DNA of 64,000 bases. Source: Massalongia carnosa. Lineage: Eukaryota. The position numbers and the translations under genes are program-made. Below the pieces are notes generated by a model. The model was not told the DNA's origin. It did not search any database and saw only the letters and a program-made list of their open reading frames with translations. Location of the stretch: the NCBI GenBank assembly GCA_965645245.1, contig OZ287070.1, forward strand, positions 62,001-126,000. The letters are read 5' to 3'. Below, piece by piece: positions 19,152-39,930 of the stretch. Within the stretch, counting starts at the first letter, position 1. Every line of letters starts with the position of its first letter.

Positions 19152-19755
19152 ATTGGGATGAAACCAAATCTCCCTGTAATCGATTTTGCCCTCTATTCAT
19201 AGTCAGCATCTGCGTATCAGTTATAAGACTGCAGGATTATGGCTTCGAGCAACAAAAAACGCTCTCGATTTATCAACCCCAAAGGCACAACTAAACGCCT
19301 CAAATCTATCTTTGCACCTGCATCTGCTTCTGCGTTTAGATCTATTATATCAATCACTGCCCCATTCCTACGTGGCACTCTTGCCGAGATCCAATGACTC
19401 TCAGAGCCTCAACCAAATAATAGGCCGGCAACAAGGCTTGAACGGGATTCACAACATACATTACAGGCGGCTAGTGCGGAAATCGTTGCTTTCTCTTAGA
19501 GGATAACTCAGATCAATCAAAATTGGATTGCTTTGTACCATCATCCCTGAGCCTCCAGTCACTCCCGGTCAGTCCACATCAAAATCGGACCTAGAACCGC
19601 CCAGCGACTGTGATCCTTTCGATCTAAGAGCCAGAACCAAGTCACCAAGCACTTATAATAGCACTCCGTCGGAATCCGGTAAAACCAAACACCAGTTCAA
19701 GCCAGTCCGTTAACAAGGACAATCCATTAAGCTCTTCCAATAAACCCTTTCCATC

Positions 19756-22700
19756 ATGAGTGAAAAAATCTCTGGATCGGGGTCCTATAGCGCTATTGAT
19801 AGGATCCCTAAGCTAGTGGACCACGAGGGTTATCCAGCATGGAAGCGAGCCATGCGAGATTGCCTCAAAATGATAGATCTTTGGATCTATTGTGATAACA
19901 CCGAAGCTGCACCACGCCCAAACGCTCCCAATGATGGCTTCAACAAATGGAAAAAGGGCCAAGATAAGGCCTGCACTGCTCTACGATTAGCTTGTGAAGG
20001 AAATGCCTACACCGATATAGAAGACCATACTACTGCTTCCGTCGCCTGGGACCTGCTTGAGTCAAACTATAAGCCTCGCGGTTCGGGATTCCTCAATGAC
20101 ACCTTTAGAAAATTAGACAACCTTATCCTATCGGATTGCAGCAGCCCTGCAGACTACGTTACCCAATTTCGCGCCACGGTGAATAAGCTTCGCACCTTCT
20201 CAAGCAAGCTAAGCCTGGACGAAAACTGGCTTATCTATCGCTTCCATACCAATTTAGGCTTCGAATACAACAGCTATTTCGAACGATACGCTCAGGATCA
20301 TGATCCTTTCAATGAAATGGGTGAACCCAAGCACACGTTAAGTCAGGCTATGCAGCATTTCCAAAACACGGTGACCAACCCAAGCAAGTCCAGCGATAAG
20401 GCCGTAATCGCAATGGCAGCTGTTTCAAACGCTCAAACCCAAGCAGGAGCTCAACCCGGAACAGCCCATTCTCGAATCATCACCAAGACCATCAAGTTCT
20501 GCAACCACTGCCGAAAAGACTATCACGTAGAGAGCGAGTGTCGTGAAAAATATCCACACCTCGTTAACCAAGACTCACAGCGTAAGTCCAATAAGCGTCG
20601 TAGGAATTCCAAAAGTCAAGGTCAAAGCCAAAAGCCAACCGGAAACAATGACTCAACCAAAGGAGCCTTCTGCGCCTACATGGCCACCGCAGATATAACC
20701 AAAATATCTAAGCTCTGGATCTGTGACTCTGGAACTAGCCAACATATTACCCACGATCGCTCCATCTTCACCTCATTCAAGACATCCGATTGCCCTCCAA
20801 TTCAAGGTATTGGAGGAGTATTAATTCCCAAAGGAATAGGTAACGTCATGTTGCGGTGTGCCGGTAACGAGGGTCTTCGGGAGTTCCCTCTTTTCGATGT
20901 GTTATACGTTCCGGACGGAGGCCTAAATCTCATCTCCCAAGGACAATTACAACGAGATGGATGTCCCCTGAAGATTGTACCAGAGGGAATTGAAATCGGG
21001 AACTATGGTATTATCGCTCGCCGCCAGGACAACAATCTGTATATCCTGAATATGTGGAACGTCTCTGAAGCCGCTCTCGCTCTTGCTGCAATTAATAGCG
21101 AGGCGATAAAAATGTGGCACGCTCGTTTAGGCCATCTTGGAGATCAAAACATTCTCAAGCTCGCTGGCATGTCAAAAGGAATGGACCTCACCAAGCCCCC
21201 GCCCCAAGACGCCTGTCCTCCGTGCGCCATCGCTCAGTCCCAAGTAGAACCACACCGGGCCCCCATCCAACCAGGCAAGCACCCGCTGGACTTAATTCAC
21301 AGTGATGTCCAAGGACCTTTCCCAGAAGCCTTGAACGGCGCCAAATATATGGTGACCTTTCTTTGCGATTTCGATAAACGGTCCCACGTCACCTTACTGC
21401 GCGTCAAAAGCGGAGTCCTTCAAGCTTTTAAAAACTACAAGAAGCAAAATGAATATGGGGACAAACGAATTAAGCGCTTGCGATCGGACTGTGGGGGTGA
21501 GTATGACTCCAAGGACTTCGAGAATTTCAGAAACGAGCATGGCATTCAGTGGGAACCTACCGTACCGGGAAATCCACCCATGAACGGGACAGCCGAGCGC
21601 CTAGGTCAAACGCTTCACAAGTTAGCCAGCACCATGCGAGAAGGCGCTAAACTAGACATCAAATATTGGGCTGAGATGGTTCTCACTGCCAACTACCTAA
21701 GAAATCGACAACCAACTGCGGGACGCTCCATCACCCCCTACGAGTCTCACACCGGCAGCCCACCAGAACTAGGACATCTAAGGATAATAGGACAGACTGG
21801 CTATGCGCAAAATCGCAAGCCCTCCACCGGATGGAAGAAATTTCAGGAACGAGCCACCAAATGTACTTTAGTAGGATACGAAGGCGATCACATCTATCGA
21901 ATGATAAATCCACGGGGCGCGGTCATGCGTTATTCCAATGTTCAGTGGATAGATAACAACCCCCCAACTCCTCCTTCCTTATCATTCTCTCAAACTAAAA
22001 GAGCCCTACATGTTGGACAGTCAGGACCGCCCACAAGAAAGCAAAAAATTACCCATCATACGGACTCCCCTCATACGGACTTAGTCGACGCTCATGAATC
22101 CATAGAATCAATTCCCACTGGACCTCTCCCATCAAACGCTGGAAAAGAGGCATTGGCAAACCAACTGCCCATTGAGCCTTGGTCCCAGGCAGATATTCTC
22201 TCTAAGCATCCAAAACTTCGCGCCCCCTCGCCTGACCCGCTTGCTCTTTTGGCTCTTCTTGCTCGAGCCAATGACCCGGAGCCATACGAGCCTAAAACCT
22301 ATAAACAGGCCGTAGATAGTCGGGAGGAAAAGGATTGGCGAAGGGCAATGCAGGAAGAAATTGACTCTATCAACGAAAATGATACCTGGATCCTCACCTC
22401 CCTGCCCCCGGACCGCAAAGCCCTGCGAGGCAAATGGGTTTATAAAATCAAACGAGGCCCGGCTGGCGAGATTCTTCGTTACAAGGCTCGATGGGTAGTC
22501 AGAGGCTTTGAGCAACGTGAAGGCATTGACTACAATGAGACTTTTGCTTCAGTAGTGAAGCCAATGAGCTATAAAGCCATCTTCGCTATCGCTGCAGCCA
22601 ATGATTGGGAAATCCACCAAATGGACGTAAAAACAGCCTTCTTGTACGGAAGGGTGGACGAGGAAATCTACGTGGAGCAACCAACCGGTCTGGATGACGG

Positions 22701-23880
22701 GTCAACGAGAGTTTGCAAGTTGAAGAAAGCTCTTTATGGCCTGAAACAGTCGTCTAGAATCTGGTATGAAACGATCACTACTTTTTTCAAGTCTCATGAA
22801 TTCGTTCCAGTCAACGCCGACCTTAGCGTTTTCGTTAAAGAAGGGGTTATCGTAGCCATTTACGTCGATGATTTAATTATCACTGGCTCTTCTTCTTCCG
22901 AGATACAACGTGTCAAGAAACTGCTGAGTGACGAGTTCTCGATGGTTGATTTAGGCCCTATCAATTACTACCTGGGCATGACGATAACTCGGGATCGGGC
23001 TAATAGGATTCTTCGCCTTGGTCAGCAGGCCTATCTGGAAAAAGTACTACGTGACCATGGCATGTGGGACACTAACCCCGTGGCTACCCCGATGGATGGG
23101 CGACTGGAGGCTGCACCAGAGGGCCATCAGGCCACAGATGACTCTCGCCTCCGCTACCAATCAGCGGTGGGCTCTCTCATGTATGCTATGCTAGGCACTA
23201 GGCCTGACTTAGCCTACGCCGTATCGGTGGTCAGCCGCTATGCCTCGAACCCGACCGATACGCACTGGAAGGCAGTCAAACGCATCTTTCGATACATCAA
23301 GGGCACTCTACCGTTGCAGTTAACATACAAAGGTCACTTACAACCCTTAAACGGTTACACTGACGCGGATTGGGCCGGAGATCATCATACCCGAAGGTCT
23401 ACCTCAGGCTTCGTGTTTAATGTGGGTAGTGGCGCTATTAGCTGGTCTTCCAAACGACAACCGACCGTAGCCCTATCTTCATGCGAAGCCGAGTACATGG
23501 GTCAGACTCAAGCCACCAAGGAAGCCGTCTGGCTGTCTAGTCTTCTCGACCAACTTTCAGCACCTCAAGTCCCTGGGATACACTCTCTCCAAACCCAGAG
23601 CACCTCTGTAGCCCTTGCCTGCTTGCCTACATCTTTCGCCCTAAATGCTATCATCATTCACTGCGACAATCAAGGAGCAATAGCTTTGGCCAAAAATCCC
23701 CAGGCACACGCGCGGAGCAAGCATATTGACATCCAATGGCACTACCAAAGAGAGAAGATCGAAGACAAATCAGTGGAATTTCGCTATGTTCCTACCGAAG
23801 AACAGGTAGCTGACGGCCTAACCAAGGCCCTACCAAAGGACAAATTTGTTGTCTTTCGAAAAGCTTTAGGCTTAGAATAA
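19756..23880 (+). CDS. gag-pol: Copia gag-pol polyprotein (Gag, PR, IN, RT, RH), 1374 aa
   Basis: CNHC..H..C knuckle, WICDSGTS, WHARLGH, SDCGGEY, MDVKTAF, YVDD, DADWAG, KHIDI; IN precedes RT. Confidence 0.97.
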   Translation: MSEKISGSGSYSAIDRIPKLVDHEGYPAWKRAMRDCLKMIDLWIYCDNTEAAPRPNAPNDGFNKWKKGQDKACTALRLACEGNAYTDIEDHTTASVAWDLLESNYKPRGSGFLNDTFRKLDNLILSDCSSPADYVTQFRATVNKLRTFSSKLSLDENWLIYRFHTNLGFEYNSYFERYAQDHDPFNEMGEPKHTLSQAMQHFQNTVTNPSKSSDKAVIAMAAVSNAQTQAGAQPGTAHSRIITKTIKFCNHCRKDYHVESECREKYPHLVNQDSQRKSNKRRRNSKSQGQSQKPTGNNDSTKGAFCAYMATADITKISKLWICDSGTSQHITHDRSIFTSFKTSDCPPIQGIGGVLIPKGIGNVMLRCAGNEGLREFPLFDVLYVPDGGLNLISQGQLQRDGCPLKIVPEGIEIGNYGIIARRQDNNLYILNMWNVSEAALALAAINSEAIKMWHARLGHLGDQNILKLAGMSKGMDLTKPPPQDACPPCAIAQSQVEPHRAPIQPGKHPLDLIHSDVQGPFPEALNGAKYMVTFLCDFDKRSHVTLLRVKSGVLQAFKNYKKQNEYGDKRIKRLRSDCGGEYDSKDFENFRNEHGIQWEPTVPGNPPMNGTAERLGQTLHKLASTMREGAKLDIKYWAEMVLTANYLRNRQPTAGRSITPYESHTGSPPELGHLRIIGQTGYAQNRKPSTGWKKFQERATKCTLVGYEGDHIYRMINPRGAVMRYSNVQWIDNNPPTPPSLSFSQTKRALHVGQSGPPTRKQKITHHTDSPHTDLVDAHESIESIPTGPLPSNAGKEALANQLPIEPWSQADILSKHPKLRAPSPDPLALLALLARANDPEPYEPKTYKQAVDSREEKDWRRAMQEEIDSINENDTWILTSLPPDRKALRGKWVYKIKRGPAGEILRYKARWVVRGFEQREGIDYNETFASVVKPMSYKAIFAIAAANDWEIHQMDVKTAFLYGRVDEEIYVEQPTGLDDGSTRVCKLKKALYGLKQSSRIWYETITTFFKSHEFVPVNADLSVFVKEGVIVAIYVDDLIITGSSSSEIQRVKKLLSDEFSMVDLGPINYYLGMTITRDRANRILRLGQQAYLEKVLRDHGMWDTNPVATPMDGRLEAAPEGHQATDDSRLRYQSAVGSLMYAMLGTRPDLAYAVSVVSRYASNPTDTHWKAVKRIFRYIKGTLPLQLTYKGHLQPLNGYTDADWAGDHHTRRSTSGFVFNVGSGAISWSSKRQPTVALSSCEAEYMGQTQATKEAVWLSSLLDQLSAPQVPGIHSLQTQSTSVALACLPTSFALNAIIIHCDNQGAIALAKNPQAHARSKHIDIQWHYQREKIEDKSVEFRYVPTEEQVADGLTKALPKDKFVVFRKALGLE

Positions 23881-26024
23881 ACCAGAAGCCCTTTGTCGTA
23901 AAAAATTCGACCTTAACCCAAAAAAAAAAAAAAAAAAAGTATCACCCACAGCTGAGCCTGTGGGGGTGTTTTCGTACATCGCCAGCAGCATTAGCCTGCG
24001 GAGTACACTGACTCACCTGCAGGTGATCCACTGGGAAGCATGATATTATACTGGAGTATGTGGGAGTTATTGAATTTCTCTTTATCATGTGGGAGTGCTA
24101 TTTCAGTGCCTGAGTGGGGGTGTTAGAATGTACAAATCAGGTTACTTCATTTCAGCCGCACTCACCTTCTACCGCACGAGTATGGCGCACGCTAATGGCT
24201 AGACGTATCGCTAGTCTAATACTAGCATACCGTACATTGTCTATAAATCTAGCTATTCCCACTATATAGAACAACAGCAAGCGTTCTATCCTCTATCTAC
24301 TATACTACCTTTTGATAAATATTACATATCTTTCAAAGATGATGCCACTGGAACGTACCATGTTTATCCGCTGAAACTGAAGAGTCAGGCCTTTGAGAAG
24401 GCAAAGGAATATATTGAATGGGCGTCTCAGGAAACTGGCATGCAGATGGGAGCACTCCATACGGATAGGGGAGGTGAATATAACAATGAAACCTTTCAGG
24501 ACTATCTTAAGAAACAACACATCAGATGGAAATGCAGTGCCCCATACACCCCCGAACAAAATGGAAAAGCCGAGCGACTAAATTATACTCTGATGAGTTC
24601 AGTCCGGTCCATCTTATCAGCAATGAAATTACCGAAGGGCCTATGGCCTGAAATCATCAAAGCAGTGTGTTATCTGAAGAACAGAAGTCCTAACACGGAC
24701 GGGGTGACACCATATGAGAAACTAAACAACAAAAAGCCTAACCTCGGTCATCTAAGAGTGTTGGGTGCACGTGCTTGGGTTCATATTCCCAAGGAAAAGC
24801 GAAAGAAGCTAGACGAACGGTCCTGGCAGGGCATCCATGTGGGCTATGAAGGCACCAATCAGTATCGGATATATGACCCCTGCACAGGCAAAGTTCATGT
24901 TACTAGAGACGTAACTATTGATGAAAAGAACCTATTTGATCGGAAAGCTTACAAATCAAACGAGCTTGTTGACGACGAATGGGCACAAACAGACGATGAT
25001 CAGTTCGGAAATCCAGACGATTTTGACGACGAGGGAAATAACAAACCCGAGGACTATTACACCCCTCGGTCAACTAAACCTCACCTACCTACACCCCCCG
25101 ATTCTCCTCCAAACACGGAACATTCACACCAAAATTCAGTGGGAGATTCACAACAAACAAGGCCAGAAGGGGGAAATGTCGAAGAAAATTATGGAGGGGG
25201 AAATTATGATAATCCCTATGATAGTCTGACCCACGACCCCGAGGCCACCAACCACGAGGCCGAGGCCACCGACCCCGAGGCCCCTGAGGCCTCGGAAGGC
25301 CATAATTCTTCCACCTCTGACCATGTTCCATTGAGAAGGTCCAAGCGGGCACCAGTCAAACGAACACAATATCCTGATGAAATTTTTTATGGACCAGGTA
25401 GGCTACCGAAACGAACTAATTTCACTAGCACAAACGTGGCAAAATCCCACATACATATGATGAAGGCACTAACCATGCTTGCAAGCAACATTGATAATGA
25501 AGGGCCAGATGAACCCCTCTCGCTCAAAGAGGCTATGGCTAGGCCTGATTGGCCCAAATGGATGGAGGCCATGAAGACCGAAATTGAATCTCATACCGAA
25601 AATGGCACGTGGGAGTTGACCGAAGCACCAAAAGACCGACGGGTAATCACCGGACGGTGGGTGTTCAAACTGAAAAAGGATCGACATGGAAACATACTAA
25701 AATACAAAGCACGATGGGTGGTTCATGGCTACAAGCAGGAAGAAGGTCTAGACTACATCGACACCTTCGCTGCAGTGGTCAAGCCTATGTCATATATGAG
25801 ATGGTTCTATGTCACGTGAGGCCCCTGAGTCAAAGTAAATTAAGAATCACCCTCTGAATATTCTTTCCTCATTCACTTCTTCTCACTCGGCCTCATCCAT
25901 CTCACTGACTCGTCGTCGACCCCACTTTGTCTCGGTGCCCCTACCTCGCTGTCAGTGCTTGCTGCTTTTCCAATCTCACTGACTCGTCGTCGACCTCACG
26001 TTGTCTCGGTGCCCCTACCTCCCA

Positions 26025-27038
26025 ATGACGAACACCCGTTCCCAAAGCACCTTGATGGACGACATAGTCCCCGACCCCCAGGAGATTTTCGGATTGACGC
26101 AGGCCCAATCCAATCAAATCTTCGCCCTACAAAAGAAGAAAGCCGAGGCGGAAGCGAAGGCGGCCGAGGCTGAGGCTAGAATTGCCGAGTCCAAGGCATT
26201 GGTCGCCGAGAAGGAGGTGGAAAAAATGCAGCTAGAAATCGACTGCATGCGCCGAGAATCTGACGCCCGAATAGCGGCCGTCATTCCTGCTGGCAAGCCG
26301 AGTCGTGTCGTCGGCGATGACGACGAGGACCTAGGTGAGATCCCTCTCGAAGTAAGAAGCATAGCACCCCGTTTCGCGGGCCTACCACAGGACGAGATCA
26401 TCAAGATCTTTTCAAATAAATTCAAAGCCATCAACCTCTCCCGCCTCCGACACATGCACGGCATGCAATACGAGTCATACAAGGATCAAGACCGCATCGG
26501 CATCGAAGACGGCGCCTTGAGGTTGAGAAAGGCATCCGGGACCTACAAAGATTTCGGAAAGACAGTTCATGACGTCTGGACCGAGAGCTTCATCAACTAC
26601 ACCTCGATCTTGGTCAGTCTTTTCGGGAAATCGAGTCAACAGCTTCACGCCACCATGTCGGCATTCCACGGGAAAATCCTCACGCTGGCCAAGGTGTACG
26701 AGTGGCAGGAAGCAGTCCTCCCCCTCGCCATCGAAACCCACACCCACATCATCGCGTCTCAGCCATCCGACGCATCCCAATGGAAAATGCCCGACGAATT
26801 CCAAGCTCGATTCTGCACCCCCCTCACAGTCCTACGCCGTCGCCGCTCACGATCCCCGCCGTCCCGACGACCGACCCCGAGAGGAGACAGGGCCGAGAGG
26901 GCCGAGAAGGCAGCGGGGGAAATCTGCGACAAGTACAACAGCGGCACCTGCACCTGGCCGTCGTGCTACCGACAGCACAAATGCAAATCGTGCGGCGCGG
27001 CTGGGCATGGCCAGAAGACATGCCCAACGAAGAAATAG
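26025..27038 (+). CDS. gag: Gag-like ORF1 of YR element 1
   Basis: ATG at 26025; coiled-coil-like N-terminus; C-terminal C/H cluster CDKYN..C..C..H.C..C..H..C. Confidence 0.85.
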   Translation: MTNTRSQSTLMDDIVPDPQEIFGLTQAQSNQIFALQKKKAEAEAKAAEAEARIAESKALVAEKEVEKMQLEIDCMRRESDARIAAVIPAGKPSRVVGDDDEDLGEIPLEVRSIAPRFAGLPQDEIIKIFSNKFKAINLSRLRHMHGMQYESYKDQDRIGIEDGALRLRKASGTYKDFGKTVHDVWTESFINYTSILVSLFGKSSQQLHATMSAFHGKILTLAKVYEWQEAVLPLAIETHTHIIASQPSDASQWKMPDEFQARFCTPLTVLRRRRSRSPPSRRPTPRGDRAERAEKAAGEICDKYNSGTCTWPSCYRQHKCKSCGAAGHGQKTCPTKK

Positions 27039-28787
27039 GGGGTTGGTGCAGGAGGCAGTAGAATAGCTTCAATAGCTGAATTCATGACGTCCCATCCCTG
27101 CTTACCTGCACCAATCAGACCAAATACAATCCCTTCGTTTCAACTCGTAGACGCATCTCGTCAGCGTTTGAAAGACAGCCCATCTCCCCTCGTACCGTCC
27201 GCATGGGCAACCCTACTTCAAGAGTATCCGGGCCCCCTCCGAGTCCATCTGCCCATGATCCTTCGTTTCGGAGTACAAATCGGATACGAAGGCCCCACAG
27301 ACATCCTTCGGATCGAAAAAAATCTGACATCAGCGAATGAGGACCCGGAAACGATCGAGAATAAGCTTCAAGAGGACCTCAGGAAGGGCCGAGTCAGACG
27401 AATAGCCGCCCCGAGTCAGCCATTTGTGGCCTCCCCCCTCGGCTTGGTCCCGAAACATGACGGAGGATGGCGACGCATTCATCAGCTGTCTCATCCCAAT
27501 CAAACATCAGTCAACGACAACATTCCAGAAGAGGCATCCAAATTACAATACGCCAGACTCGACGACATTATTCAATTGATTCTGTCAGAGGGCAAAGGTG
27601 CTGTCATAGTGAAAAGAGACGTCAAAGACGCCTTTCGAAACGTTCCCGTCGCACCTCATCATCAATGGCTTCTGGGTTTCGGATGGAATGACGAATTCTA
27701 CACCGAGACATGCCTTTCGTTCGGACTGTCGACGGCCCCGTTCATCTTCAATCTTTTTGCGGAAGGCTTTCATTGGATTTTGGAATCCTTTCTACAATGG
27801 AGATTACATCACTATCTAGACGACTTCGTTGCAATTTTCCCATCCGAGACATCGTCAGAACGATTGCACCAAGAAACAAAAGCCTACAACATTCTCACCG
27901 ACATTCTCGGCATCCCGAGAAACGACTCAAAAGACGCCGAGGGAACGACAGCGACAGTCTTCGGACTCGAGGTCGACACCATCAACAGTCTTATTCGTCT
28001 GCCAGCGGACAAGCTGGAAAAAGCGAGAATCATCACTACAAAGGCACTAAACGAGACGACAATCAGCCTCGGCGACATGCAGTCAATAGCGGGCTTCCTA
28101 AGCTTCTGCGCACAGGCAGTCAAATTGGGCCGAGTCTTCTTACGATTATTCTGGAATTTTATAGCCTCATTTCCCTCGGGCAGTCATCGTCGGGTCAAAA
28201 GAAGAATTCTCACATGGGTCAGACAGGATCTCATCTGGTGGAACAAACTTTTAGTGGACTTCAACGGTATTGTCTTCTTCGAGACGTCAACACGAGACAC
28301 GATCAAGGTGCATACGGATGCATGCCTCACAGGTCTCGGAGGCTATTTTCAACAAGACAACGAGCTCGTGAATCAAAAAAAACACATGTAGGGCCCGAGT
28401 CCTAGTCCTCAATCAGGAAGAATCACCGAGTATAAACGTCCGAGAAGTCGAGGCTATCCTTCTAATCCTTCAGAAATGGGCGCCGACATGGCGACATCGA
28501 CAGATCCTTGTCTTTACCGACAGCAACACAGCATACACAGGATTCACGAATCTAACCCTCAAGGGACCGGCCAACGCGCCTCTACGAGAAATACTGTCCA
28601 TAGCTGCAAAGTGGGACATCGTACTACGTTGTCAATGGATCAGTGGCACTTCCAATGGACTAGCAGACGCCCTGTCACGTTTTGATGATGAAAGATTGGC
28701 TAACTTTTGCCCTCATTGGCAGAACCCATACAATTCGATGAACCTCCCTCCGCCTACCTATCCTCCACACCAGGGCCAGCCCTGGTA
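27039..28787 (+). pseudogene. pol: RT/RNase H of YR element 1, frameshifted near the A run at ~28375-28383
   Basis: SPLGLVPK, KRDVKDAFR, LSFGLSTAP, YLDDF, TDACLTG; RNase H continues in another frame (FTDS, NGLADALSR). Confidence 0.9.
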
Positions 28788-28791
28788 AAAC

Positions 28792-31700
28792 CAGTGTTCG
28801 CAATGGAGTGACTGGATTGGATTGGAGTGGCGCTCCAATCCAATCCATTAAGTCTAGACCTATATGGATTGGAGTCCATTAAGATTAAACCTTAATGGAT
28901 TGGACTCCATTAAGGAATATATTTAATGGATGGAGTGGATCGGAGTCCATGGATCTCCAGTGGAGTAAATCCAGTGGACTCCACTGGATTAAATCCATTT
29001 AATCCATTTAATCCATGGACTCCATGGACTCCACTGAAGTGCAGTGCGTACAAACCTTTCCGGAACCTCCCTCGAGCGTAAAACCACTTTGTAGTAGATA
29101 TAAATTGCCTAATCGAGACGACGACCCAGCTAAGCGAGGACGACGACCTTTGTGTTTTGATGATTTTAGCTGGATTTTCGCACCTTCCATGGCCCGGTAA
29201 ACCTCGGCTAGGGGGTAGAGTCTGAAATATAGGTGGTAGATTGAGGTTGCGAAGTTGAAGTGATGAGGAAGGAGTGTTTTTGCATTTGTTCTCCACGAAC
29301 TCAAAGTAGTTTTTGAACCTTTCAACTAAAATTAACTAGGAAAAATTCAAAAGATACCTAAAAGAACCTTTCCAGCAATGCCAAATTTGCCATCAAACAT
29401 AGCAAATATCAACTTCTAGTCCCCTTGGCAACCATGCACTCATCCCACCTCCTATGGGTTCCCTTGATCCCCGAACTTCTCTCCTGCCTTCTGGTACGCT
29501 GGTAAGTACTCGAAATAGTCTCCTAGAACTAGCCCACCCATGGCCCAGCTTCTAATACACTCTCCTGCCTCAATAAAGTCGGGTTTTAGACGATTCCTAT
29601 GATCTGGAATCATCAATTTGGACGAAGAGAACAAGCGTTCGACCTCTGCACTCTTGCCAGGCACAGAGAATATATCCCTGGCCATTTGAGCTAGTCTAGG
29701 ATAGTGAGGCTCGTGAGCTTTCCACCATTCTAAGTGGCCAGAGAACCCGCAACCATCTTCATCAACTGGTTCTGTATTACAGTACCGTCTATATTCATCT
29801 CTGACAGTGGATTTAGCTTTGTTTGTACTCCTTTTAAGGTGTTCCTTCAAAAGGGAGGGCTTAGCGTGCTACAAATATAGTTAGCCGTGTTTTTATATTA
29901 ATAAGTGTTAATATACCTTATTATTTTGACTTCCAGGTGACGGTGTATCATCTTCAGCAACCTCTATATTTGCATATAAGTCTTGCCAAAGTTTTTGGAC
30001 CTTCGTACGAGCTTGAGCAAGGTCACTAGCACTCATACTATCCTCAAAATAAGTGCACTTATACCAGGGCATCAGGACGACGGCCACTAAATAAATAGGG
30101 GAAGTGAGTAGTTGACGGTATTTCTCTAGCTTTTGCATGGCGTTAATAATGTTCAGTTCCAGTCGTTTACTAGCTAGTTCCTGTGGGTTTGACTGATCGA
30201 CTTCATCAAGCTCAAAGCCAAATAGCTGCTCTTCCATCCCCTTTTTTATTAAATCATATGAAGGGAGCACTTGGTGAGCGTAACCACTATTTCCTATTAA
30301 AAGCTTAGTGATTATCGAGTTATTTAAAGCTTATATAATATACCAGACATCTCTCTTCCTTGTAAACTCATCATAAGCTCTTCGAGTGGTTCCATAAAAG
30401 CAATCACTTCCTTGGCGTAGTTCCAATCGTCAACCGTCATTTGCGAATCAAAAAGAGTCTTCTCAGTAAATGATTGCTCAGAGTTACGATGGACGAATAG
30501 ATCAAGAGAGTCTTTGATTTGAATGGCCCGTCGAAGCATATTAAGAGTTGAAAACCATCTAGTGATTTGCTCTTTAATTGGATGCAAGAGAGGGTCTTGA
30601 ATCGTCTTATTAATCCCTTCAAACTGCTCGATCCTTTGAGCGGTGGCCATTATAAAGACAATAATCACATGAAGCTTTGTAATAGCATCTATAGGACGTT
30701 TCCAGACTGCCTTGGGCTCCCCTGGGAGTCGTTGACGCGCTTGCTTCGTAGGTTTGTTCTCTAAGAATGCAGTTGCCACGAGATTAACGATATGGCCGAA
30801 ACAACGTAGTCGGTGAGTATCAGCGTCCCACCTAACTCCCTGCAAAAGGAGATGTTCCTCGACTGCTCTCAAGCAAGTGTCATTATCACCGGCATTATCC
30901 AAAACACAGTAGCCGAGCCTACCCCCTAGTTTATAAACTTCAAGGGCCTTGACTATTAATTTTGACATATTCTCTCCACTATGGGGTCCAATAAGACGCT
31001 TCATGCCAAGAATCACTGTACGTGCTTGCCAGGAACGATCAATAAAGTGACAGCAAAGACCTAGCATAGAGAAATTATTAGGAGACGACCATAAGTCAAA
31101 GGATATATGGACTTGGCAGTTGCTTTCCACTAATAACTGAATCAATACAAGTTGACAAGCTAGAAATATCTCTAATAGTGCAGCTTTAATGGAATTGCCC
31201 GACTTGGGGAGTGTATCATTGCCTCATAAATACGGACTTGAATATAAAAGCAGGTCTCGAAAAGCACGCTGCTCTACAATGGCAAAAGGAATATGACAAA
31301 TACAAAGAAATCGTAAGAGCTTTTGTCGAAAGACTTCTGGACTAAAAGGAGCAACTACTACCCCTTGTTGAAGATGTTCAACAACAGAGATAGATGCCCT
31401 AGCAGCTGCTTCCTTAGGTGGAACAAGATTATGGTCCTTTCGTAAGTGCTCTCCACATGAAGCAGTGCCGTTTGTGATCATATACTCAGTATTAGAACCG
31501 TCTGCAACACCTGTAGTTAATTAGCTTTAATAATCGTTAATATAAATTAAATAGATATTGGACAAATGTATAGTACATGTCAAAATGACAACTCGATGGT
31601 TCGGTACATATAAAATGGGCGGAATTACACTGAGTTCTATACAAATTTTCATAGCAAACATGGCAAATAAGTATAAATCTGGTACTTTACATTTGTTACA

Positions 31701-32969
31701 CACCCAATAGGCCTTGCCCTCCCTCTCTGCCTTGGTGCCCCAATCCCATATCCAACTACGGCTCGCTCTAGCTCTCTTTGAAGCTATTCCACTTGTAGGA
31801 GACGAAAACCGGCCACCAATAACCCTGCCTTCAATAGAGGTTATAGGTGACGGCCTAGAAGGGCTGCTGGAATGGTTACCAGGAGCGTTCCTGTCGTTCT
31901 CAAGTATATAGTGCCGCTCAGGATGATATGGGGACGCTCCGTAGCTTGGGAAGTCGTGGAGGGTGCAGGGGAACGTCGAGAAAAGCTCAGGGCTGACTGG
32001 GATGGAGACCTCTGCCATATATTAATATATAAGCTTGATTAAATAAAGGATATGGATCAATACTCTTGAAGCTTCATTCCCAAGCTCTGCTGAACCAACC
32101 GTACGCTTTCTGCCACGCGTAATACGTTCAGGAACGTCGATATCACATGCTCCAGGAAGCTCAAATACTGACTCTGTCTCGCCAGGGTCGGGGCGGGTTG
32201 TAGTTGTATCGTCACTAATATCAGACATCTGTCACGGTACGAGGTCTGGTAGGAATTCAGGTGGTGCAAACGTATTACTTGATTGTCTAGCTAGGTGGAC
32301 AAGACGTTCGACAAGGAGAAAAGAAACAGAAAATCCAAGGTGGGCGAGTATAAGACTCTGGCGAACGGAACTAGTCCCAATCCAGCCGTTGATCCAATTT
32401 CCCCCAAGTCCCTAGCATGAAACTATCGCTATGACAGTCGGAACACTTACCTTCAGCCGGAACACTTACCTTTGCCCTAACTAAACCTGATTAAGCTTAG
32501 TTCCTTTCGGATCGGCTAGCCGGCTAGTGCTTCGTTCAAGCAGCTAAGGTTGGTTCAATGAACTAACTGGCAGGTGCCCAGTCACTCCATGACAACATCA
32601 CTTCAAGTACGGTTCGGGACGGATTTTGGTGGTTTCTAGTTTAAATAGAAGCAAATTCAGTCCATAGCAAGTGATATTTATAGGTTGACACGAATAAAAG
32701 CAGTAAAACAAGTGAAATATCACTTAAAATGTGGGAATTACCATAGCTTTAAGGCCCCTGGAGCTATACCTAAAACACCACCTATTTTTAGGCCCTAATC
32801 CATTGGACTCCATGGAGTCCACTCCATTAGATAAATCCTTATTGGAGTGACTCCATTAAGCCTAAAACCTTATTGGATGGACTCCATTTAAAAAAAAAAC
32901 CTTTGGAGTGGATTGGAGTGGATTAAATGGAGTGGATATCCATTAAGAATCACTCCATTGCGAACACTG
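28792..32969 (-). mobile_element. hAT DNA transposon
   Basis: 20-bp TIR CAGTGTTCGCAATGGAGTGA; 8-bp TSD GGTAAAAC (28784-28791, 32970-32977); dense TGGAG/TGGAT subterminal repeats. Confidence 0.96.
29452..32228 (-). pseudogene. Multi-exon hAT transposase with BED finger; at least one premature stop
   Basis: SWIW..YWVCNKC..HL..H, SFDLWSS, LDNAGDND, RCFGH, TRWFS, WWK..ARDIFSVP..AEVERLFS; in-frame TGA at 31224-31226. Confidence 0.9.
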
Positions 32970-35279
32970 GGTAAAACGCCTCGTCTGGCACGGACACTCG
33001 GCGGACACGAGAAAAGGGTACGGGACGGCGATCGACTCATACGAGGCATTCTGCGCGACGACGGGACGCACGTCGTGGCCTGCAACAACCGAGTCCCTCG
33101 AGGAATGGCTAGCCGGTCGACTATACGGGGGCGGCACACCCAAGCAGGGAAAGATAAAACCAGAGACGGCAGCGAGCTACCTCGCCGGCCTCAGATCATA
33201 CCATGTAGACCGAGGATATGGCCTCACCCCATTCGAGGGGCCGAGACTTCAATTGATGCTGAAAGGGGGAAAAAGGATCTTTTCTCAGACAAAAAGAAGA
33301 CGCCTACCCATTTCAAAAGAATTACTGACAAAAATCACCAGTATTCCCGCTCATTCGGCCGAAGACCTCAACATCGACGCGACATTCAAAGTTGCATGGG
33401 CAGGGTTCCTCAGACTCGGGAAAATCACCTACACTGTCGCCGATCGTAAGAAGACATCTTTTCAGAGATTGAAACCTACACGAGGTTACATCTCATTCGC
33501 CGAGAACGATCAATACGCGACATTACGTCTCAAAAGAAGCAAAACAGACACAAATCACTCATGAGTTCAGATAGTGCTGGCAGCGACCAATGAGAGCACT
33601 TGCCCCGTGACAGCACTACGGCGTCTTTTCAGAAATGATCCTCAGCCATCTACATCCCCGCTTTTTCGTCTCGGCACCGCATTCACCAGAGCCTCCGTCA
33701 TAGCATCCCTGAAAAAGAGACTGATAGCCGCCGGCATCAACGACTCGGCATACTCGGGACACAGCTTCAGAAAAGGAGCAGCACAACACGCCGCCGACCA
33801 CGGGATGCTGGATGAGAGTATTCAGAGACTCGGAAGATGGTCATCAAACGCGTTTCAGCTATACTTTCAGACGTCCCAGGCCTCACTATTCAATTTGAAC
33901 CTCAGTTTTCAAAAAGGCATCCCTCTGGCAGTCCCACGTGCTGTCGTCGCCGAGACGAATCCTACAAACTCCTACCCCTACTCAATTTGGGCATTCCATT
34001 GGGCGTACAGGTCAACCAGGGCATCGATCCGGAGCGCCGCCGGGCACCTCCATCTAGATCATCGCCGTCGGGCACTGCCGTCGGGCATCATCTATCGGAT
34101 CTTTGAGCGTCAGCAGACGCCTCGGGCCTAGAAGATGAGGTTCTCACCTCAGCACCGACCCCGAGTCACGTGCCTAGGCCTGCCCGGGTTGACCTGTGTC
34201 GTTCCCATGCCCAATCAAATTCAAGCATTCAAATCAATTCATCCAAAAAGCCCCATCCAGAACGGACGGTTATGATGACAAGAATAATGCCAAAGTAAGA
34301 GGCAGTACTCTGTAGTCACGATTCGAACCTCTCGAAGTAACTTTCGGCTCTTCAGCGATTGCGGAGAGTGCTATGTATGTAAGCATAAAGCACAGTAGGT
34401 TTTAAAAGCAGAATGCATTCTATTGATATTGAGCTGTCGCGCACAGAACGTGAAATCTTTGATACAGAATGGGGGAATGCTTATTGCTCATAGAAGAGTG
34501 GTGCTGTGGACATCATTATTCGACAAGTCGACTTCTACGCCAAGCAGCGTTAGAATCAGGTCATGCATACTCGGAGAAGTTGATTCATTAGTACTATTCT
34601 GTGGACTTGATGAAGTGCTGATGACATGAATGTCTTCGTACCCGTTTAACTCGATTAGCATCTTGTGGAAGAATTCTCATTGTGATGGTCTTTCATTCAC
34701 AACAACATGTACTCCGTAGCCTTATGTTTTCTACCGACGAGGACGGGCATGCCTCGAAAATCATTGGCGATGACGTGTCCGGACTACGCCGCCTAGATGC
34801 ATCTAGTGAAACGTGCTGAACCAATCAGTGCTAAGAAAGCAGCAGGCTGCGCCCACTAGTTCGGCTATGCTGAGAGCTAGTGCGTCGTTAATCGAGACAG
34901 CTCCCGCTTTGATTTCGGCACCGCATGGATCTCTCGGACGGCATAGATGTCTCAGCACCATAAGGATGTCTCAGCACGGCATAGAGATCTTAGCACCGCA
35001 TCGATCCTTCGGACGACAGTTAGGTTTCGGATTTGTGTATGCCTTGCTATGGGCCGCGTTGATGGGGCATACTGGGATGGTAGAGTAGGACAAGGAGAAT
35101 AGGAAGAAGATATATAAAGAGGAGGTCCCAGACGGTATCCCTCATCATCTCACATCTCAAGACAATCAAAAAGCATAGCATTTTGATAGCACTGTTTGCA
35201 ACGTTTTCTTTTCACCCAATTCAAATTTATACAACCACTACACTTAAATTTACTCTATTCAAATCCCTCTCCTCCAAAA

Positions 35280-36434
35280 ATGGCCACCCGCATCTCCAAC
35301 AGAATCACCAAGCCTACCTCCCGCACACAAGGCAGCACTCTAGCCCGTACTAGAACTAGAGCTAGGGCAAATCTAGCCAACTCCAACCCAGACGTCGAAG
35401 TACCCGACTCACAAGACAGCACGGCAACCCTTCAAAGCCATCCTCAACCTTCTCCTCTTCCATCTTCAGCGTTTAATTCCTCCTCACAAGGGCCTGTTAT
35501 ACCGGAAACCCGTTCTCGCACCCCTGATGACATTATTGAACTTAGATCACAACGCGAAATGTCCCGCAGGGAAGCCGAGGAAAGAGAAAGAGTAAGTCTT
35601 AGGCGGGATATCGAAACCCAACAAGCACGTGCCCGAGACGTGGTCCCTGGGCCAGTAGCCTCAGCTCAACAGCCTTCCCTATTATTTCCGACATCATTTC
35701 CACCGCATCGACCAAACTCATTGTATACAGAAGGTATGGATCCTCGTTTTGTTTCTCTTATGAACGAATATCCCACTATCAAGCCCATATGGATAAAGCA
35801 AATCTCCGAGAATACGTTTGACCCAATCAACATTACCAAGCTATGTACCGACATCGACGGAGTTCAAACCAACTCTAGATACGTCAAACTCGGAGAAGGT
35901 CTGGAAATCGCCACGAGAGAAGAAGATGGCTCCTTAAAAGATATCAAAGGGATAGTTCATTTGATACGATGTCTCGGGGTATATTGGATGATACTACTAC
36001 ACTTTGCACACCCCGGTCTCCAGATAAACCTGATGAGAGCCTTCATGGCTTATCAGGACCATCTTCTATCATTATACGCCTTCTACACCTGGGACTCGGT
36101 TCGCATCTTTCATTTGAATTTCCACAAATCTCGAGCCTTTCGCGGGATTGACAACCCGGATGGATGGAAAGAAATGGACCATTCCTTGGAAAGGCATCTT
36201 GTGCGGAAACCGTCCGCTTACTTTGCAAAACCGGACGATAATTCTACGGCTTTCAAAACCTCAGGCGAAAAGATTATCTGTAAGAAATACAACTATGGCA
36301 AAGACTGTCCCGTATATTGTAGATTCCAACATGTGTGTGAGAAATGTGGAAAGCAACATCGGGCGATGGACTGTACAAATGGAAAAAATCAACCCTCTAA
36401 CCCAAATTCGATGCCTCTCCCATCAAGGCAATGA
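35280..36434 (+). CDS. gag: Gag-like ORF1 of YR element 2
   Basis: ATG at 35280; core similar to 26025-27038; CKKYN..C..C..H.CEKC..H..C zinc cluster. Confidence 0.88.
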   Translation: MATRISNRITKPTSRTQGSTLARTRTRARANLANSNPDVEVPDSQDSTATLQSHPQPSPLPSSAFNSSSQGPVIPETRSRTPDDIIELRSQREMSRREAEERERVSLRRDIETQQARARDVVPGPVASAQQPSLLFPTSFPPHRPNSLYTEGMDPRFVSLMNEYPTIKPIWIKQISENTFDPINITKLCTDIDGVQTNSRYVKLGEGLEIATREEDGSLKDIKGIVHLIRCLGVYWMILLHFAHPGLQINLMRAFMAYQDHLLSLYAFYTWDSVRIFHLNFHKSRAFRGIDNPDGWKEMDHSLERHLVRKPSAYFAKPDDNSTAFKTSGEKIICKKYNYGKDCPVYCRFQHVCEKCGKQHRAMDCTNGKNQPSNPNSMPLPSRQ

Positions 36435-38051
36435 CTAACCGCCCCATTCTTATCCATCGCGGAGTCCTTTCCATACACCTTGACGGACAATCTAACAAAT
36501 ATCCCACCGGGCCCATTGAAGAAAGAAGGCTGGGAGAAACATTTGGCCAATCACCCGGATCGCACTTACACACAAACAATTATCGATATCATCACCTACG
36601 GTGCCAAAGTTGGTTATACAGGACCACATCAACTCATTATTAGCGATAATCTTGCCTCTGCAAATGAGGCACCGGAAGTTCTTACCAATGACCTCGAAGA
36701 ACAAATAGCTAGTAATCGGTTGGAGAAAGTCAACAACATTCCTTCTTGCTTTATATGTTCCCCATTAGGCCTTGTACCAAAGGCTAACGGTGGTTGGCGG
36801 CGAATCCATCATCTATCGTATCCGGAGAGTAGCTCAGTCAACGACCACATACCGGAAGACTGGGGCTCCCTGGAATATACCAGCTTCGACGAAGCCATTA
36901 GGTTGATTGAGCAACGCGGGCCAGGGTGTATTCTTATTAAAAGAGACTTTGCGGACGCTTTTCGCCACATACCAGTAGCAAAAAGCGATTGGTGGTTACT
37001 AGGTTTCAAGTGGCAGGATTCCTTTTGGATGGATAAATACTTACCCTTTGGGCTGAGAACGTCGCCGTTCCTTTTTGATCTGTTCGCGAAGGGTATCAAC
37101 TGGATATTGTACAACTGTGGTTGGAAAGACGCTATTCATTACTTGGATGATTTTTTAATAATAGTCAGCACCGGACCAGATGCTGAAAAGTTTGATCAAG
37201 TTTTCCACAACATTTGTAAAGATCTTGGCATGAAAATCAAGCTCGAAAAGAACAGAACTGGAACGACTTGCGATTTCCTCGGCATTGAAATCGATACCGC
37301 GCTCATGGAAGCACGCTTGCCTTCCGAAAAGTTACTAAAAGCAAAGACCCTAGTATCGGCAGCTTTGAATAAAAAAGCCATACCCAGGAAGGAACTCGAC
37401 TCTCTTCTAGGATTCTTATGCTTTGCAGCCAGAGTGGTAAAACCAGGAAGAGCCTTTCTACGCCGTCTTTTCAATGCTACGGCAAGCGTAACCTCTAAAC
37501 TAATCCATCTTAACAAGGACATGAGGGCTGATCTTCTATGGTGGCATCATTTCCTACCTAAATGGAATGGCATACATCTGCTCAACCGTACTAGACATAC
37601 TATGAGAATATGGACAGATGCGTCCGGCTCATATGGTATGGGCGGCTTTATCCTCAGCGAGGATCAAAATTTGCATAATATACAAGCAGCCCGGCAGGCT
37701 TTTAGCACACGCTTTACTACGCGCCTTAGGGCAAAGCATATCAACGTCAAAGAAATGACAGCAATTCTTCAAGCTATGAAAAAGTGGCTACCTATATGCA
37801 AGGGTAGTCATTTAATCCTCTATTGTGATAGCTACGCTGTCACGAAAGGAGTGAATAAAACCTCTATACGAGGCCAAGCAATGCATGCCCTGCGGGCAAT
37901 TACAATGCTAGCTGCATTACATGATATCCAGATAGAAGCGCGATGGATATCATCCAAAGAAAATTATATTGCTGATCTCTTGTCTAGAGGACTTTTGAAG
38001 AAACTGGCTGACAAAATCCCTCAGTTTCAGGCTCTACCCTCAGCAATATAG
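36435..38051 (+). CDS. pol: RT/RNase H of YR element 2, in frame with gag, no upstream ATG
   Basis: SPLGLVPK, KRDFADAFR, LPFGLRTSP, YLDDF, TDASG, INVKE, CDS, NYIADLLSR; frame open from the gag stop. Confidence 0.95.
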   Translation, partial: LTAPFLSIAESFPYTLTDNLTNIPPGPLKKEGWEKHLANHPDRTYTQTIIDIITYGAKVGYTGPHQLIISDNLASANEAPEVLTNDLEEQIASNRLEKVNNIPSCFICSPLGLVPKANGGWRRIHHLSYPESSSVNDHIPEDWGSLEYTSFDEAIRLIEQRGPGCILIKRDFADAFRHIPVAKSDWWLLGFKWQDSFWMDKYLPFGLRTSPFLFDLFAKGINWILYNCGWKDAIHYLDDFLIIVSTGPDAEKFDQVFHNICKDLGMKIKLEKNRTGTTCDFLGIEIDTALMEARLPSEKLLKAKTLVSAALNKKAIPRKELDSLLGFLCFAARVVKPGRAFLRRLFNATASVTSKLIHLNKDMRADLLWWHHFLPKWNGIHLLNRTRHTMRIWTDASGSYGMGGFILSEDQNLHNIQAARQAFSTRFTTRLRAKHINVKEMTAILQAMKKWLPICKGSHLILYCDSYAVTKGVNKTSIRGQAMHALRAITMLAALHDIQIEARWISSKENYIADLLSRGLLKKLADKIPQFQALPSAI

Positions 38052-39067
38052 GACGCGATCCACCCCCATCTTGGTACAGTGAGGTACCTCTAGACGAAAT
38101 CGCAGCACGATACCTCTGGTGGGGCCTGGCCACTAAGACAAGATCTTTATACACAACGGCAAGAAAGGGATACGTTCTTTACTGTAGGGTAAACCTCAAC
38201 GCGCCACCATTTCCAGCCAACATCCGGACGCTGTCTTCGTGGATCGCAGCGTTGGGTGAACGACGCCTGCAACCAAAAACTATTAAGAGCTACTTGACGG
38301 GCATAAGATCATGCCAGATAGATATGGGCCTCGGTAATCTCGACGTATTTCATCACCCGGTGTTAGATCGCATCCTTACTGGCATAAAGCGAAAGAACGG
38401 TGAAGCCGAGAAACGTGAAAGGTTACCAATTACTAGAGAGATCTTAATCAAATTGCTAAGTCGTCTTGATCAAACGAAAGAGAAAGGCGCAAATTTACAT
38501 GCGGCGTACTGCTTAGCGTTTGCAGGCTTCTTACGAGCCGGAGAATTTACTTACACAACGCAAGATGTACTAGACCCAAGCTTTGATCAATGGCACCTCA
38601 CCAGAAAATCTATTAGGTTCGAAGCAGATCACCTACAGCTCTCTCTACCAGTCTCCAAAACCGATTCCTTTCGCCGAGGCATAACACTGACAATTGCGGC
38701 TACCAACGATGTTGCTTGTGCACTAGCTTCTCTTACAAATTTATATAGGCGATTCCCAAGTTCTCCGGCCGCACCACTCTTTAAAAACGGTCAGTCCTTC
38801 ACTCGAGACTACATTACAACAGCGATGAAATCCACCTTAAGGAACTTGGGCTATATAGGAAATTTCTCTGGCCACTCGTTCAGAAGAGGTGCGGCAACAA
38901 CAGCGCGACGGGCAGGACTCACCGAAGACGAGATTCAGATGCTAGGAAGATGGAAGTCAGACGCATACAAGCTTTACATACAAACCCACCCCACTTACCT
39001 TCTTAACGCCTCAAAACGCCTTCAAACATTACCCACGGAACCTCACAATCCAGTCACTAGGTCCTGA
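38012..39067 (+). CDS. Tyrosine recombinase of YR element 2
   Basis: Open from 38012; FAGFLRAGEF, SKTD, GHSFRRG, LGRWKSDAYKLY catalytic set; first ATG only at 38324. Confidence 0.95.
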   Translation, partial: QNPSVSGSTLSNIGRDPPPSWYSEVPLDEIAARYLWWGLATKTRSLYTTARKGYVLYCRVNLNAPPFPANIRTLSSWIAALGERRLQPKTIKSYLTGIRSCQIDMGLGNLDVFHHPVLDRILTGIKRKNGEAEKRERLPITREILIKLLSRLDQTKEKGANLHAAYCLAFAGFLRAGEFTYTTQDVLDPSFDQWHLTRKSIRFEADHLQLSLPVSKTDSFRRGITLTIAATNDVACALASLTNLYRRFPSSPAAPLFKNGQSFTRDYITTAMKSTLRNLGYIGNFSGHSFRRGAATTARRAGLTEDEIQMLGRWKSDAYKLYIQTHPTYLLNASKRLQTLPTEPHNPVTRS

Positions 39068-39930
39068 ACAACACCGCAAGCGGGTCGTTCCATGTTGGGG
39101 ATTGGGAGTCTGTTCACAGCCCAAGGCCTGCGAGAGGGTCTTACATTAGTAGACAGCAAGGCCCTTATCGAGTCCCCCTCTCGAGGCCGGGGGCTGTGAG
39201 CAATAGCCCAAACATACTTAGTAGCAATATAACGAGATTGACACGAACTAGCTAGTTCGGCTATGCTGAGAGCTAGTGCGTCGTTAATCGAGACAGCTCC
39301 CGCTTTGATTTCGGCACCGCATGGATCTCTCGGACGGCATAGATGTCTCAGCACCATAAGGATGTCTCAGCACGGCATAGAGATCTTAGCACCGCATCGA
39401 TCCTTCGGACGACAGTTAGGTTTCGGATTTGTGTATGCCTTGCTATGGGCCGCGTTGATGGGGCATACTGGGATGGTAGAGTAGGACAAGGAGAATAGGA
39501 AGAAGATATATAAAGAGGAGGTCCCAGACGGTATCCCTCATCATCTCACATCTCAAGACAATCAAAAAGCATAGCATTTTGATAGCACTGTTTGCAACGT
39601 TTTCTTTCCCACCCACCCACTCCAGTTCTTCTGTCGCTTAGATAGAGGGAGTCTGTTCACAGCCCAAGGCCTGCGAGAGGGTCTTACATTAGTAGACAGC
39701 AAGGCCCTTATCGAGTCCCCCTCTCGAGGCCGGGGGCTGTGAGCAATAGCCCAAACATACTTAGTAGCAATATAACGAGATTGACACGAACTAGCCTATC
39801 TTGGAGAGTTTTAACTCTCTCTTGACCATCAGTACACCTCAGTATTGTTTTGGTGAGTCTACTGTTGCCAGCACAAAGCCTTATTGTTGCAATTGTAAAT
39901 CTACGACTATCATTACTACTGCAGGATTCG

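Follow-up and report, generated by a model that had tools for sequence, protein, structure and literature searches.

How does a retroelement express a recombinase whose reading frame has no conserved start codon? The question is raised by a stretch of Massalongia carnosa DNA (assembly GCA_965645245.1, contig OZ287070.1, positions 62,001–126,000, forward strand), the 64,000 nt of which are referred to here as the window. Between 25.8 and 39.8 kb, the window carries two retroelements of one kind, E1 and E2. Each comprises a gag-like open reading frame (ORF) with a C-terminal zinc-knuckle-like Cys/His cluster, an ORF for reverse transcriptase (RT) and RNase H (PF00078 together with RNase H families) and a tyrosine recombinase (YR). 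An original prediction, made from these two elements, held that both splice from a donor within gag to an acceptor at the start of the YR frame. We consider it probable, at a little over three in four, that this predicted splice is real and serves YR expression in the manner of a retroviral subgenomic RNA, on the strength of the phase-matched and conserved signals described below.

Predicted splice signals at homologous sites in E1 and E2

Fungal spliceosomal introns are marked by a GT donor, a CTRAC-like branch point and a YAG acceptor. All of these, in compatible phase, were found in the sequence (Table 1), and the E1 donor, branch point and acceptor lie exactly where the original prediction had placed them. 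The two donors had been proposed to be equivalent. In agreement with this, each splits a Gly codon in a G-x-x-P context, and the aligned gag core starts, at RF/EY, 12 (E1) and 11 (E2) codons further downstream. Between 26025 and 26400, E1 contains five phase-1 GT dinucleotides, and only the one at 26335 begins a splice-like hexamer. At the other end of the proposed intron, the claim of a common spacing between branch point and AG was borne out at 19 nt in both elements, with E2 having an additional, nearer AG at 13 nt. Similarity between the RNase H sequences of E1 and E2 ends at the acceptor, at 28722 in E1 and 38030 in E2.

Joining 26334 to 28723 in silico, with the hAT transposon that interrupts E1 and one copy of its target-site duplication (TSD) removed (28784–32969 or equivalent), gave VGDDDEDL-E-PIQFDEPPSAYLSSTPGPALVKRLVWHG. 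The spliced frame is open for 321 codons, from the gag ATG at 26025 to a TGA at 33562, confirming that the product is in frame. It had also been claimed that the first ATG otherwise available to the E1 YR lies at 33256. Accordingly, no ATG was found in the YR frame between 28704 and 28791, and the first one after the hAT is at 33256, inside the N-terminal domain. In E2, the first ATG of the YR frame is at codon 105.

Table 1. Positions in the window of the E1 and E2 coding regions, predicted splice signals and associated repeats
Feature	Positions	Strand	Remarks
E1 gag ORF	26025–27038	+	Open frame 25983–27038; first ATG 26025; TAG stop 27036–27038; pol follows in the same frame
E1 exon 1 (predicted)	26025–26334	+	gag ATG to final base before donor; 103 codons + 1 nt
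E1 5′ splice site GTGAGA (predicted)	26335–26340	+	Context CTAG/GTGAGA; phase 1; splits Gly codon 26334–26336 (DEDL-G-EIP); homologous to R/GTAYGT of relatives
E1 proposed intron	26335–28722	+	2388 nt; gag core, gag stop, RT, RNase H
E1 pol	27039–28788	+	RT (PF00078) and RNase H-like; interrupted by an extra base near 28375; TAA stop 28786–28788
E1 branch-point-like CTAAC	28700–28704	+	TAA 28701–28703 is the stop bounding the YR frame
E1 3′ splice site AG (predicted)	28721–28722	+	ttggCAG; first AG after branch, 19 nt from branch A; phase 1
E1 exon 2 (predicted), initial part of YR frame	28723–28791	+	Runs to hAT insertion
hAT transposon in E1 exon 2	28792–32969	-	4178 bp; 20-nt perfect terminal inverted repeat; Dimer_Tnp_hAT E=9e-20
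E1 YR coding region 3′ of hAT	32978–34131	+	Broken by TGA 33562–33564 and a 1-nt difference at 33986
E2	34856–39795	+	Intact-looking Ngaro-like element
E2 gag	35280–36434	+
E2 pol	36435–38051	+
E2 YR	to 39067	+
E2 direct repeats A1, A2	34856–35211, 39252–39607		100% identical
E2 direct repeats B1, B2	39104–39252, 39647–39795		100% identical
E2 5′ splice site GTATGG (predicted)	35734–35739	+	Phase 1; Gly codon of TE-G-MDP
E2 branch-point-like CTGAC	38008–38012	+	TGA 38009–38011 is the stop bounding the YR frame
E2 3′ splice site candidates	AGs ending 38024 and 38030	+	13 and 19 nt after branch A; both phase 1

Two other E1 candidates were rejected. A 102-nt intron, GTACTA...AG (28621–28722), stays in the pol frame and would remove the ADxLSR motif of RNase H, while a phase-0 GTAAGA donor at 26352 would read into the pol-frame stop.

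The E1 copy in the window is dead, yet it keeps the splice signals: exon 2 is interrupted by the hAT, pol is frameshifted, the YR contains a stop and the 3′ end diverges from other copies. We compared E1 and E2 with contigs from four sequencing runs, of unknown kind and DNA-like. The hAT entered 69 nt into the YR frame and is flanked by an 8-bp TSD, GGTAAAAC, at 28784–28791 and 32970–32977; an empty site, with 28783 joined to 32970, was recovered in contigs of runs X1 and X5. The extra base at 28375 lies in a run of A and is absent from other copies, in which RT and RNase H are therefore in one frame. Position 33562 is G rather than T in other E1 copies in all four runs, so that the TGA is gone and the stop is private to the copy in the window. 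Other copies also lack one base at 33986, and they diverge from the copy in the window after 34246. Separately, the 5′ leader of E1 contains a 74-nt tandem duplication (25899–26021) with 49-nt cores that are 96% identical, and one contig of run X3 skips 72 nt there.

Conservation of the signals among related elements

E1 and E2 share 36–41% amino-acid identity in pol and YR and 24–26% in gag. Using a YR alignment as query, we retrieved 79 related loci (L001–L079) from metagenome contigs, which are 38–55% identical to the E2 YR. E1 represents a separate lineage and is an outlier, with 28–38% identity to every locus in the N-terminal part of the YR. A scan of viral contigs revealed no relative. 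The 79 loci turn an argument from two elements into a family-wide footprint: the same donor and acceptor were found at homologous places in most relatives, in line with the original contention that the match between E1 and E2 goes beyond chance.

We assessed the donor in 32 unique gag N-termini with a regex-anchored gag core; 13 gag entries, including E1, were left out for want of the anchor. A phase-1 R/GTA was present at the same G-x-x-P site in 31 of the 32 (as GTACGT, GTATGT, GTAATG, GTACTA or GTATGG), and the single exception, A/GTTATG, comes from a decayed copy. With a second method, the donor site was found in 40 of 46 elements with a gag match. The sequence logo shows a sharp G/GTAYGT peak, the flanks of which are nearly without information, and the donor codon is either GGT or AGT, a Gly/Ser switch that retains the GT. 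Counted over the gag N-termini of 41 elements, strict hexamers of the form GT[AG][ACT]GT numbered 20, 2 and 0 in phases 1, 0 and 2, respectively, against 259, 272 and 136 for all GT dinucleotides in the same N-termini. The element interior contained 25 strict hexamers in 98,005 nt.

Many relatives contain a second phase-1 G/GTGAGA, located 39 nt past the conserved GTAYGT (for example, L036 at 994, L046 at 3295 and L051 at 986). This hexamer is the same as that of the E1 donor.

The acceptor was assessed in 70 unique RNase H/YR junctions, 69 from the loci and one from E2. In 57 of these, CTRAY is followed by a first AG 13 nt (51 junctions) or 19 nt (6 junctions) past the branch A, always in phase 1. 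These acceptors comprise 29 CTGAC and 18 CTAAC motifs at 13 nt, 5 CTAAC and 1 CTGAC at 19 nt, and 4 CTRAT. Across 738,987 nt, the motif occurred 218 times, or 0.29 per kb, a background that includes the real sites. It was present in 10 of 13 clusters defined at 70% amino-acid identity. The motif is conserved against an unconserved background: third codon positions of pol between CTRAC and CAG use all four bases and vary freely, while the pol residues encoded by the motif vary (A/T; D/N) solely in ways that preserve CTRAC. Past the acceptor, the pol tail extends for 19 to 406 nt among relatives.

The original prediction had drawn attention to the stop codon bounding the YR frame, which lies within the branch motif in both E1 and E2. 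The stop is indeed there, and it is also found inside the motif in 57 of the 57 junctions. However, spacings of 13 and 19 nt are both 1 mod 3, so that its position follows from geometry and is not an independent line of evidence.

Splicing in silico the 36 elements that carry both signals yielded an intact ORF from ATG to YR in 21, encoding 341–663 aa, with predicted introns of 2255–2889 nt among the relatives. Eight of the remaining elements have no upstream ATG (decayed gag) and seven are broken by stops. At the start of the YR, the conserved motif DPPxSWY...ARYLWWGL precedes any conserved Met, and the stretch from the bounding stop to the YR domain contains no ATG in 40 of 56 relatives.

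One protein record has the structure expected of a fusion. P0018 (513 aa; NCBI and Logan (lgn) sources), encoded on a 3850-nt contig, matches residues 108–180 of E2 gag, the match ending at the donor (E=1e-6), and its remainder aligns with the YR at 51% identity. On the basis of this two-part alignment, P0018, as modelled in the record, is a fusion of the Gag N-terminus (Gag-N) to YR. Records of this type could represent spliced transcripts, or retro-copied or domesticated derivatives of the spliced message.

Weighing splicing against other routes to the recombinase

Several observations count against a spliced YR message. The donors of E1 and E2 depart from the family consensus at +6, and that of E1 also has GTG instead of GTA. 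The strict acceptor motif is absent from 13 of the 70 junctions, most of them decayed copies in which it is visibly mutated or shifted; in one exception, L076, CTGAC is accompanied by a phase-1 CAG further on. An intron of 2.3–2.9 kb is far above the length typical of fungi. Searches of protein collections with the gag N-terminal exon (2 matches for E1, 1 for E2 and 71 for L028) returned unspliced gag ORFs or fragments only, and no gag-N/YR fusion. Likewise, no intron-less genomic copy was found among the 79 loci, where 0 of 71 matches to the end of the gag-N exon adjoin a YR start. No RNA run was listed among those that contain E1. The joints 26334/28723 and 35733/38025 are absent from the 15 listed of 54 joints in the four DNA-like runs, a result with no bearing on expression. 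Finally, an in-frame ATG immediately precedes the YR domain, three codons ahead of QPPxxW, in 16 of the 56 relatives. The original prediction had named an ATG ahead of the domain, or loss of the signals, as evidence against itself. The first was found in these 16, whereas the second was not: they keep the splice signals, and their ATG follows the acceptor, at a residue that can be M, L, I, F, R or Q.

A locus without upstream pol, L006, was considered as an intron-less copy and rejected, as it is merely 5′-truncated.

Among the alternatives, the one that survives best accepts that the splice sites are real and pairs them differently: either the gag donor would be joined to a cryptic acceptor close by, or a donor in pol to the YR acceptor, giving a short intron and a Pol-YR protein and no gag-N/YR message. 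Short introns are the norm in fungi, and one X3 contig joins 35733 to 35841, removing 107 nt with GT..AG ends from exactly the predicted E2 donor. Moreover, elements of the L005/L013 clade contain a perfect G/GTAAGT 35 nt before the AG (L005 at about 3316, L013 at about 5940) in a phase that would fuse Pol to YR, either a mini-intron or chance, and E2 has a G/GTATGG 389 nt before the AG in the same fusing phase. Yet only 13 of 50 elements, E1 not among them, have a candidate donor in pol, and the distances are unrelated. As for the 107-nt removal, it breaks the gag frame, and the single contig that shows it has 26 nt on one side and 3-nt microhomology at the joint and comes from a run with many chimeric joints; other X3 joints carry GATC, resembling a proximity-ligation library. 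We take it as a weak hint of E2 donor use. In all elements the gag ORF runs on uninterrupted past the donor, and the conserved donor and conserved acceptor share one phase. We consider this alternative pairing unlikely.

More doubtful still is expression of the YR through -1 frameshifting or another form of recoding in the pol/YR overlap, which would produce Gag-Pol-YR and render the splice-like motifs incidental. In E1, E2 and nearly all relatives, the YR does overlap pol and lie in its -1 frame, and Muszewska et al. (PMC3783388) term the YR ORF 'frameshifted' or overlapping. An in-frame XXXYYYZ heptamer occurs somewhere in the overlap in 16 of 50 elements. In the L010 clade, and in that clade only, CCCAAAT lies between branch point and AG in the zero frame of pol and makes a formal -1 slippery site (L010 at 2789, L012 at 5992, L017 at 4986). 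By contrast, 34 of the 50 elements, E1 and E2 among them, have no slippery heptamer, and where heptamers exist their positions are not homologous, several falling downstream of the conserved YR N-terminus. Frameshifting would also require readthrough and frameshift in series, and it leaves unexplained both the conserved GT donor in gag and the stop that always falls within CTRAC.

The least plausible account dispenses with splicing, deriving the YR from internal or non-AUG initiation or from a transcript of its own and ascribing the conserved nucleotides to another cis function or to protein constraint on the pol tail; the ATG of the 16 relatives and near-cognate codons in the E1 YR frame speak for it, but E1 and E2 lack that ATG, which is not a conserved feature, protein constraint predicts neither invariant third positions (the T of xCT, the C of RAC and the G of CAG) beside freely varying ones nor a Gly-to-Ser change that keeps the GT, and no other known cis element has such a three-part form in matching phase.

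Element class, proposed expression strategy and significance

By domain content and split direct repeats, E2 is a Ngaro element (DIRS order); E1 is assigned to Ngaro by domain content. Pfam matches to RT and RNase H comprise RVT_1 (E=8e-13) and a weak RVT_3 in E1, and RVT_1 (E=3e-14) and RT_RNaseH (E=1e-7) in E2. Phage_integrase matches fall under the Pfam cut-off (E=3e-4 in E2 and E=1e-3 in E1). In the YR alignment, the R...HxxR...Y residues include an invariant R175 and Y322 and a nearly invariant H288 and R291. No rve (DDE integrase) domain is found among the Pfam matches of E1 or E2, and no methyltransferase family among those of any of their ORFs. A search of 25700–39700 for inverted terminal repeats or an internal complementary region found a sole inverted pair, which sits within the hAT.

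The order of gag-like ORF, RT and RNase H, and YR, without a methyltransferase, is shared with the fungal Ngaro clades described by Muszewska et al. 2013, and the E2 split direct repeats have the Ngaro arrangement A1...B1-A2-B2. The A2–B2 spacer of E2 is 39 nt long (39608–39646). An apparent 3892-nt skip in E2 was considered as a deletion variant and rejected as a mapping effect, in which a contig of A2, spacer and B2 was placed on A1...B1. Downstream of E2, 40233–40322 lies inside an ORF and consists of a 45-nt unit in two tandem copies, 96% identical. Two copia-type elements lie upstream of E1: one (19744–23880) has a full gag/integrase/RVT_2 ORF of 1378 codons, while the other (24215–25819) ends inside RVT_2 at the start of E1.

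In both elements, gag and pol are in the same frame with one stop between them, TAG followed by GGG in E1 and TGA (36432–36434) followed by CTA in E2. Of 36 relatives, 29 likewise have gag and pol in one frame, and 14 have exactly one stop between the two. This shared frame with a single stop suggests that Gag-Pol is made by stop-codon readthrough.

Taken with the predicted splice, these features fit the following scheme. Unspliced full-length RNA would be translated into Gag and, by readthrough of the single in-frame stop, into Gag-Pol (RT and RNase H), and would presumably also be what reverse transcription copies. A minority of the RNA would be spliced from the donor in the gag N-terminus to the acceptor at the extreme end of RNase H, where the branch point also lies, taking out about 2.3 kb in E1 and E2. 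Around 100–200 N-terminal Gag codons, with their ATG, would thereby be joined in frame to the YR ORF, which lacks a conserved start codon and is in frame -1 relative to pol. We infer that the spliceosome uses these signals and that the recombinase is active as the Gag-N/YR fusion. So long an intron, together with donors that depart from the consensus, may hold splicing at a low efficiency like that of retroviruses. The Gag N-terminus is basic and coiled-coil-like (for example, IAELExQLAQLR in relatives), and, more speculatively, a shared Gag N-terminus might tether the YR to Gag assemblies.

Spliced messages are familiar from retroviruses: the env mRNA of avian leukosis/sarcoma virus takes its AUG and first codons from gag, and foamy viruses splice their pol mRNA. 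Similar to retroviral subgenomic mRNAs, the predicted message has its 5′ splice site in gag and its 3′ splice site shortly ahead of the downstream ORF, unspliced RNA would serve as both genome and gag-pol message, and the downstream protein would borrow the start of gag. Unlike in retroviruses, the downstream gene is a tyrosine recombinase rather than env or pol, more than 100 Gag residues would be fused to it, and the host is fungal-like, with a predicted intron far longer than usual there. The gag mRNA of Drosophila copia and the env mRNA of gypsy are spliced messages from retrotransposons with long terminal repeats (LTRs), and in E1 and E2, as in these, splicing of the element's transcript would set the ratio of products. 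However, copia and gypsy are LTR elements with a DDE integrase, whereas here the splice would serve the recombinase of a DIRS-order element. The arrangement also resembles -1 programmed frameshifting at gag/pol or pol/int overlaps in having a downstream ORF in the -1 frame and a short overlap, but differs in that no slippery heptamer is conserved.

A YR frame that is offset from pol and overlaps it has been reported for fungal Ngaro elements (PMC3783388, PMC13465315). Muszewska et al. 2013 (PMC3783388) describe the YR ORF as in-frame or frameshifted, and the string 'splic' occurs 0 times in their paper. In contrast to Ngaro elements as described in these papers, the elements studied here have a conserved donor, branch point and acceptor that point to a spliced gag-N/YR message, and their gag and pol frames are parted by a single in-frame stop. 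In the passages of literature examined, native splicing is not described for any Ngaro or DIRS element; Goodwin and Poulter 2004 and the reviews by Poulter and co-workers lay outside that search, so an earlier account may exist.

These findings also matter for annotation. ORF-based pipelines always call such YRs start-less fragments, and gene predictors may report gag-N/YR fusions as host genes.

We lean, if only slightly, towards a broader proposal, in which fungal Ngaro-type elements as a group would depend on a conserved intron of 2.3–2.9 kb, spanning the gag core and all of pol, to make a subgenomic mRNA for a Gag-N/recombinase fusion. A retrovirus-like strategy would then have arisen in the DIRS order, with the Gag N-terminus docking the recombinase and a suboptimal long intron setting the ratio of genome RNA to recombinase message. 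Expression of the DIRS/Ngaro recombinase has so far been left as an 'overlapping or frameshifted ORF', and a conserved splice would offer a concrete, testable answer. If true, it would represent an unusually long conserved intron in fungal-type sequence, and tyrosine-recombinase retroelements would join the short list of elements that balance spliced against unspliced RNA.

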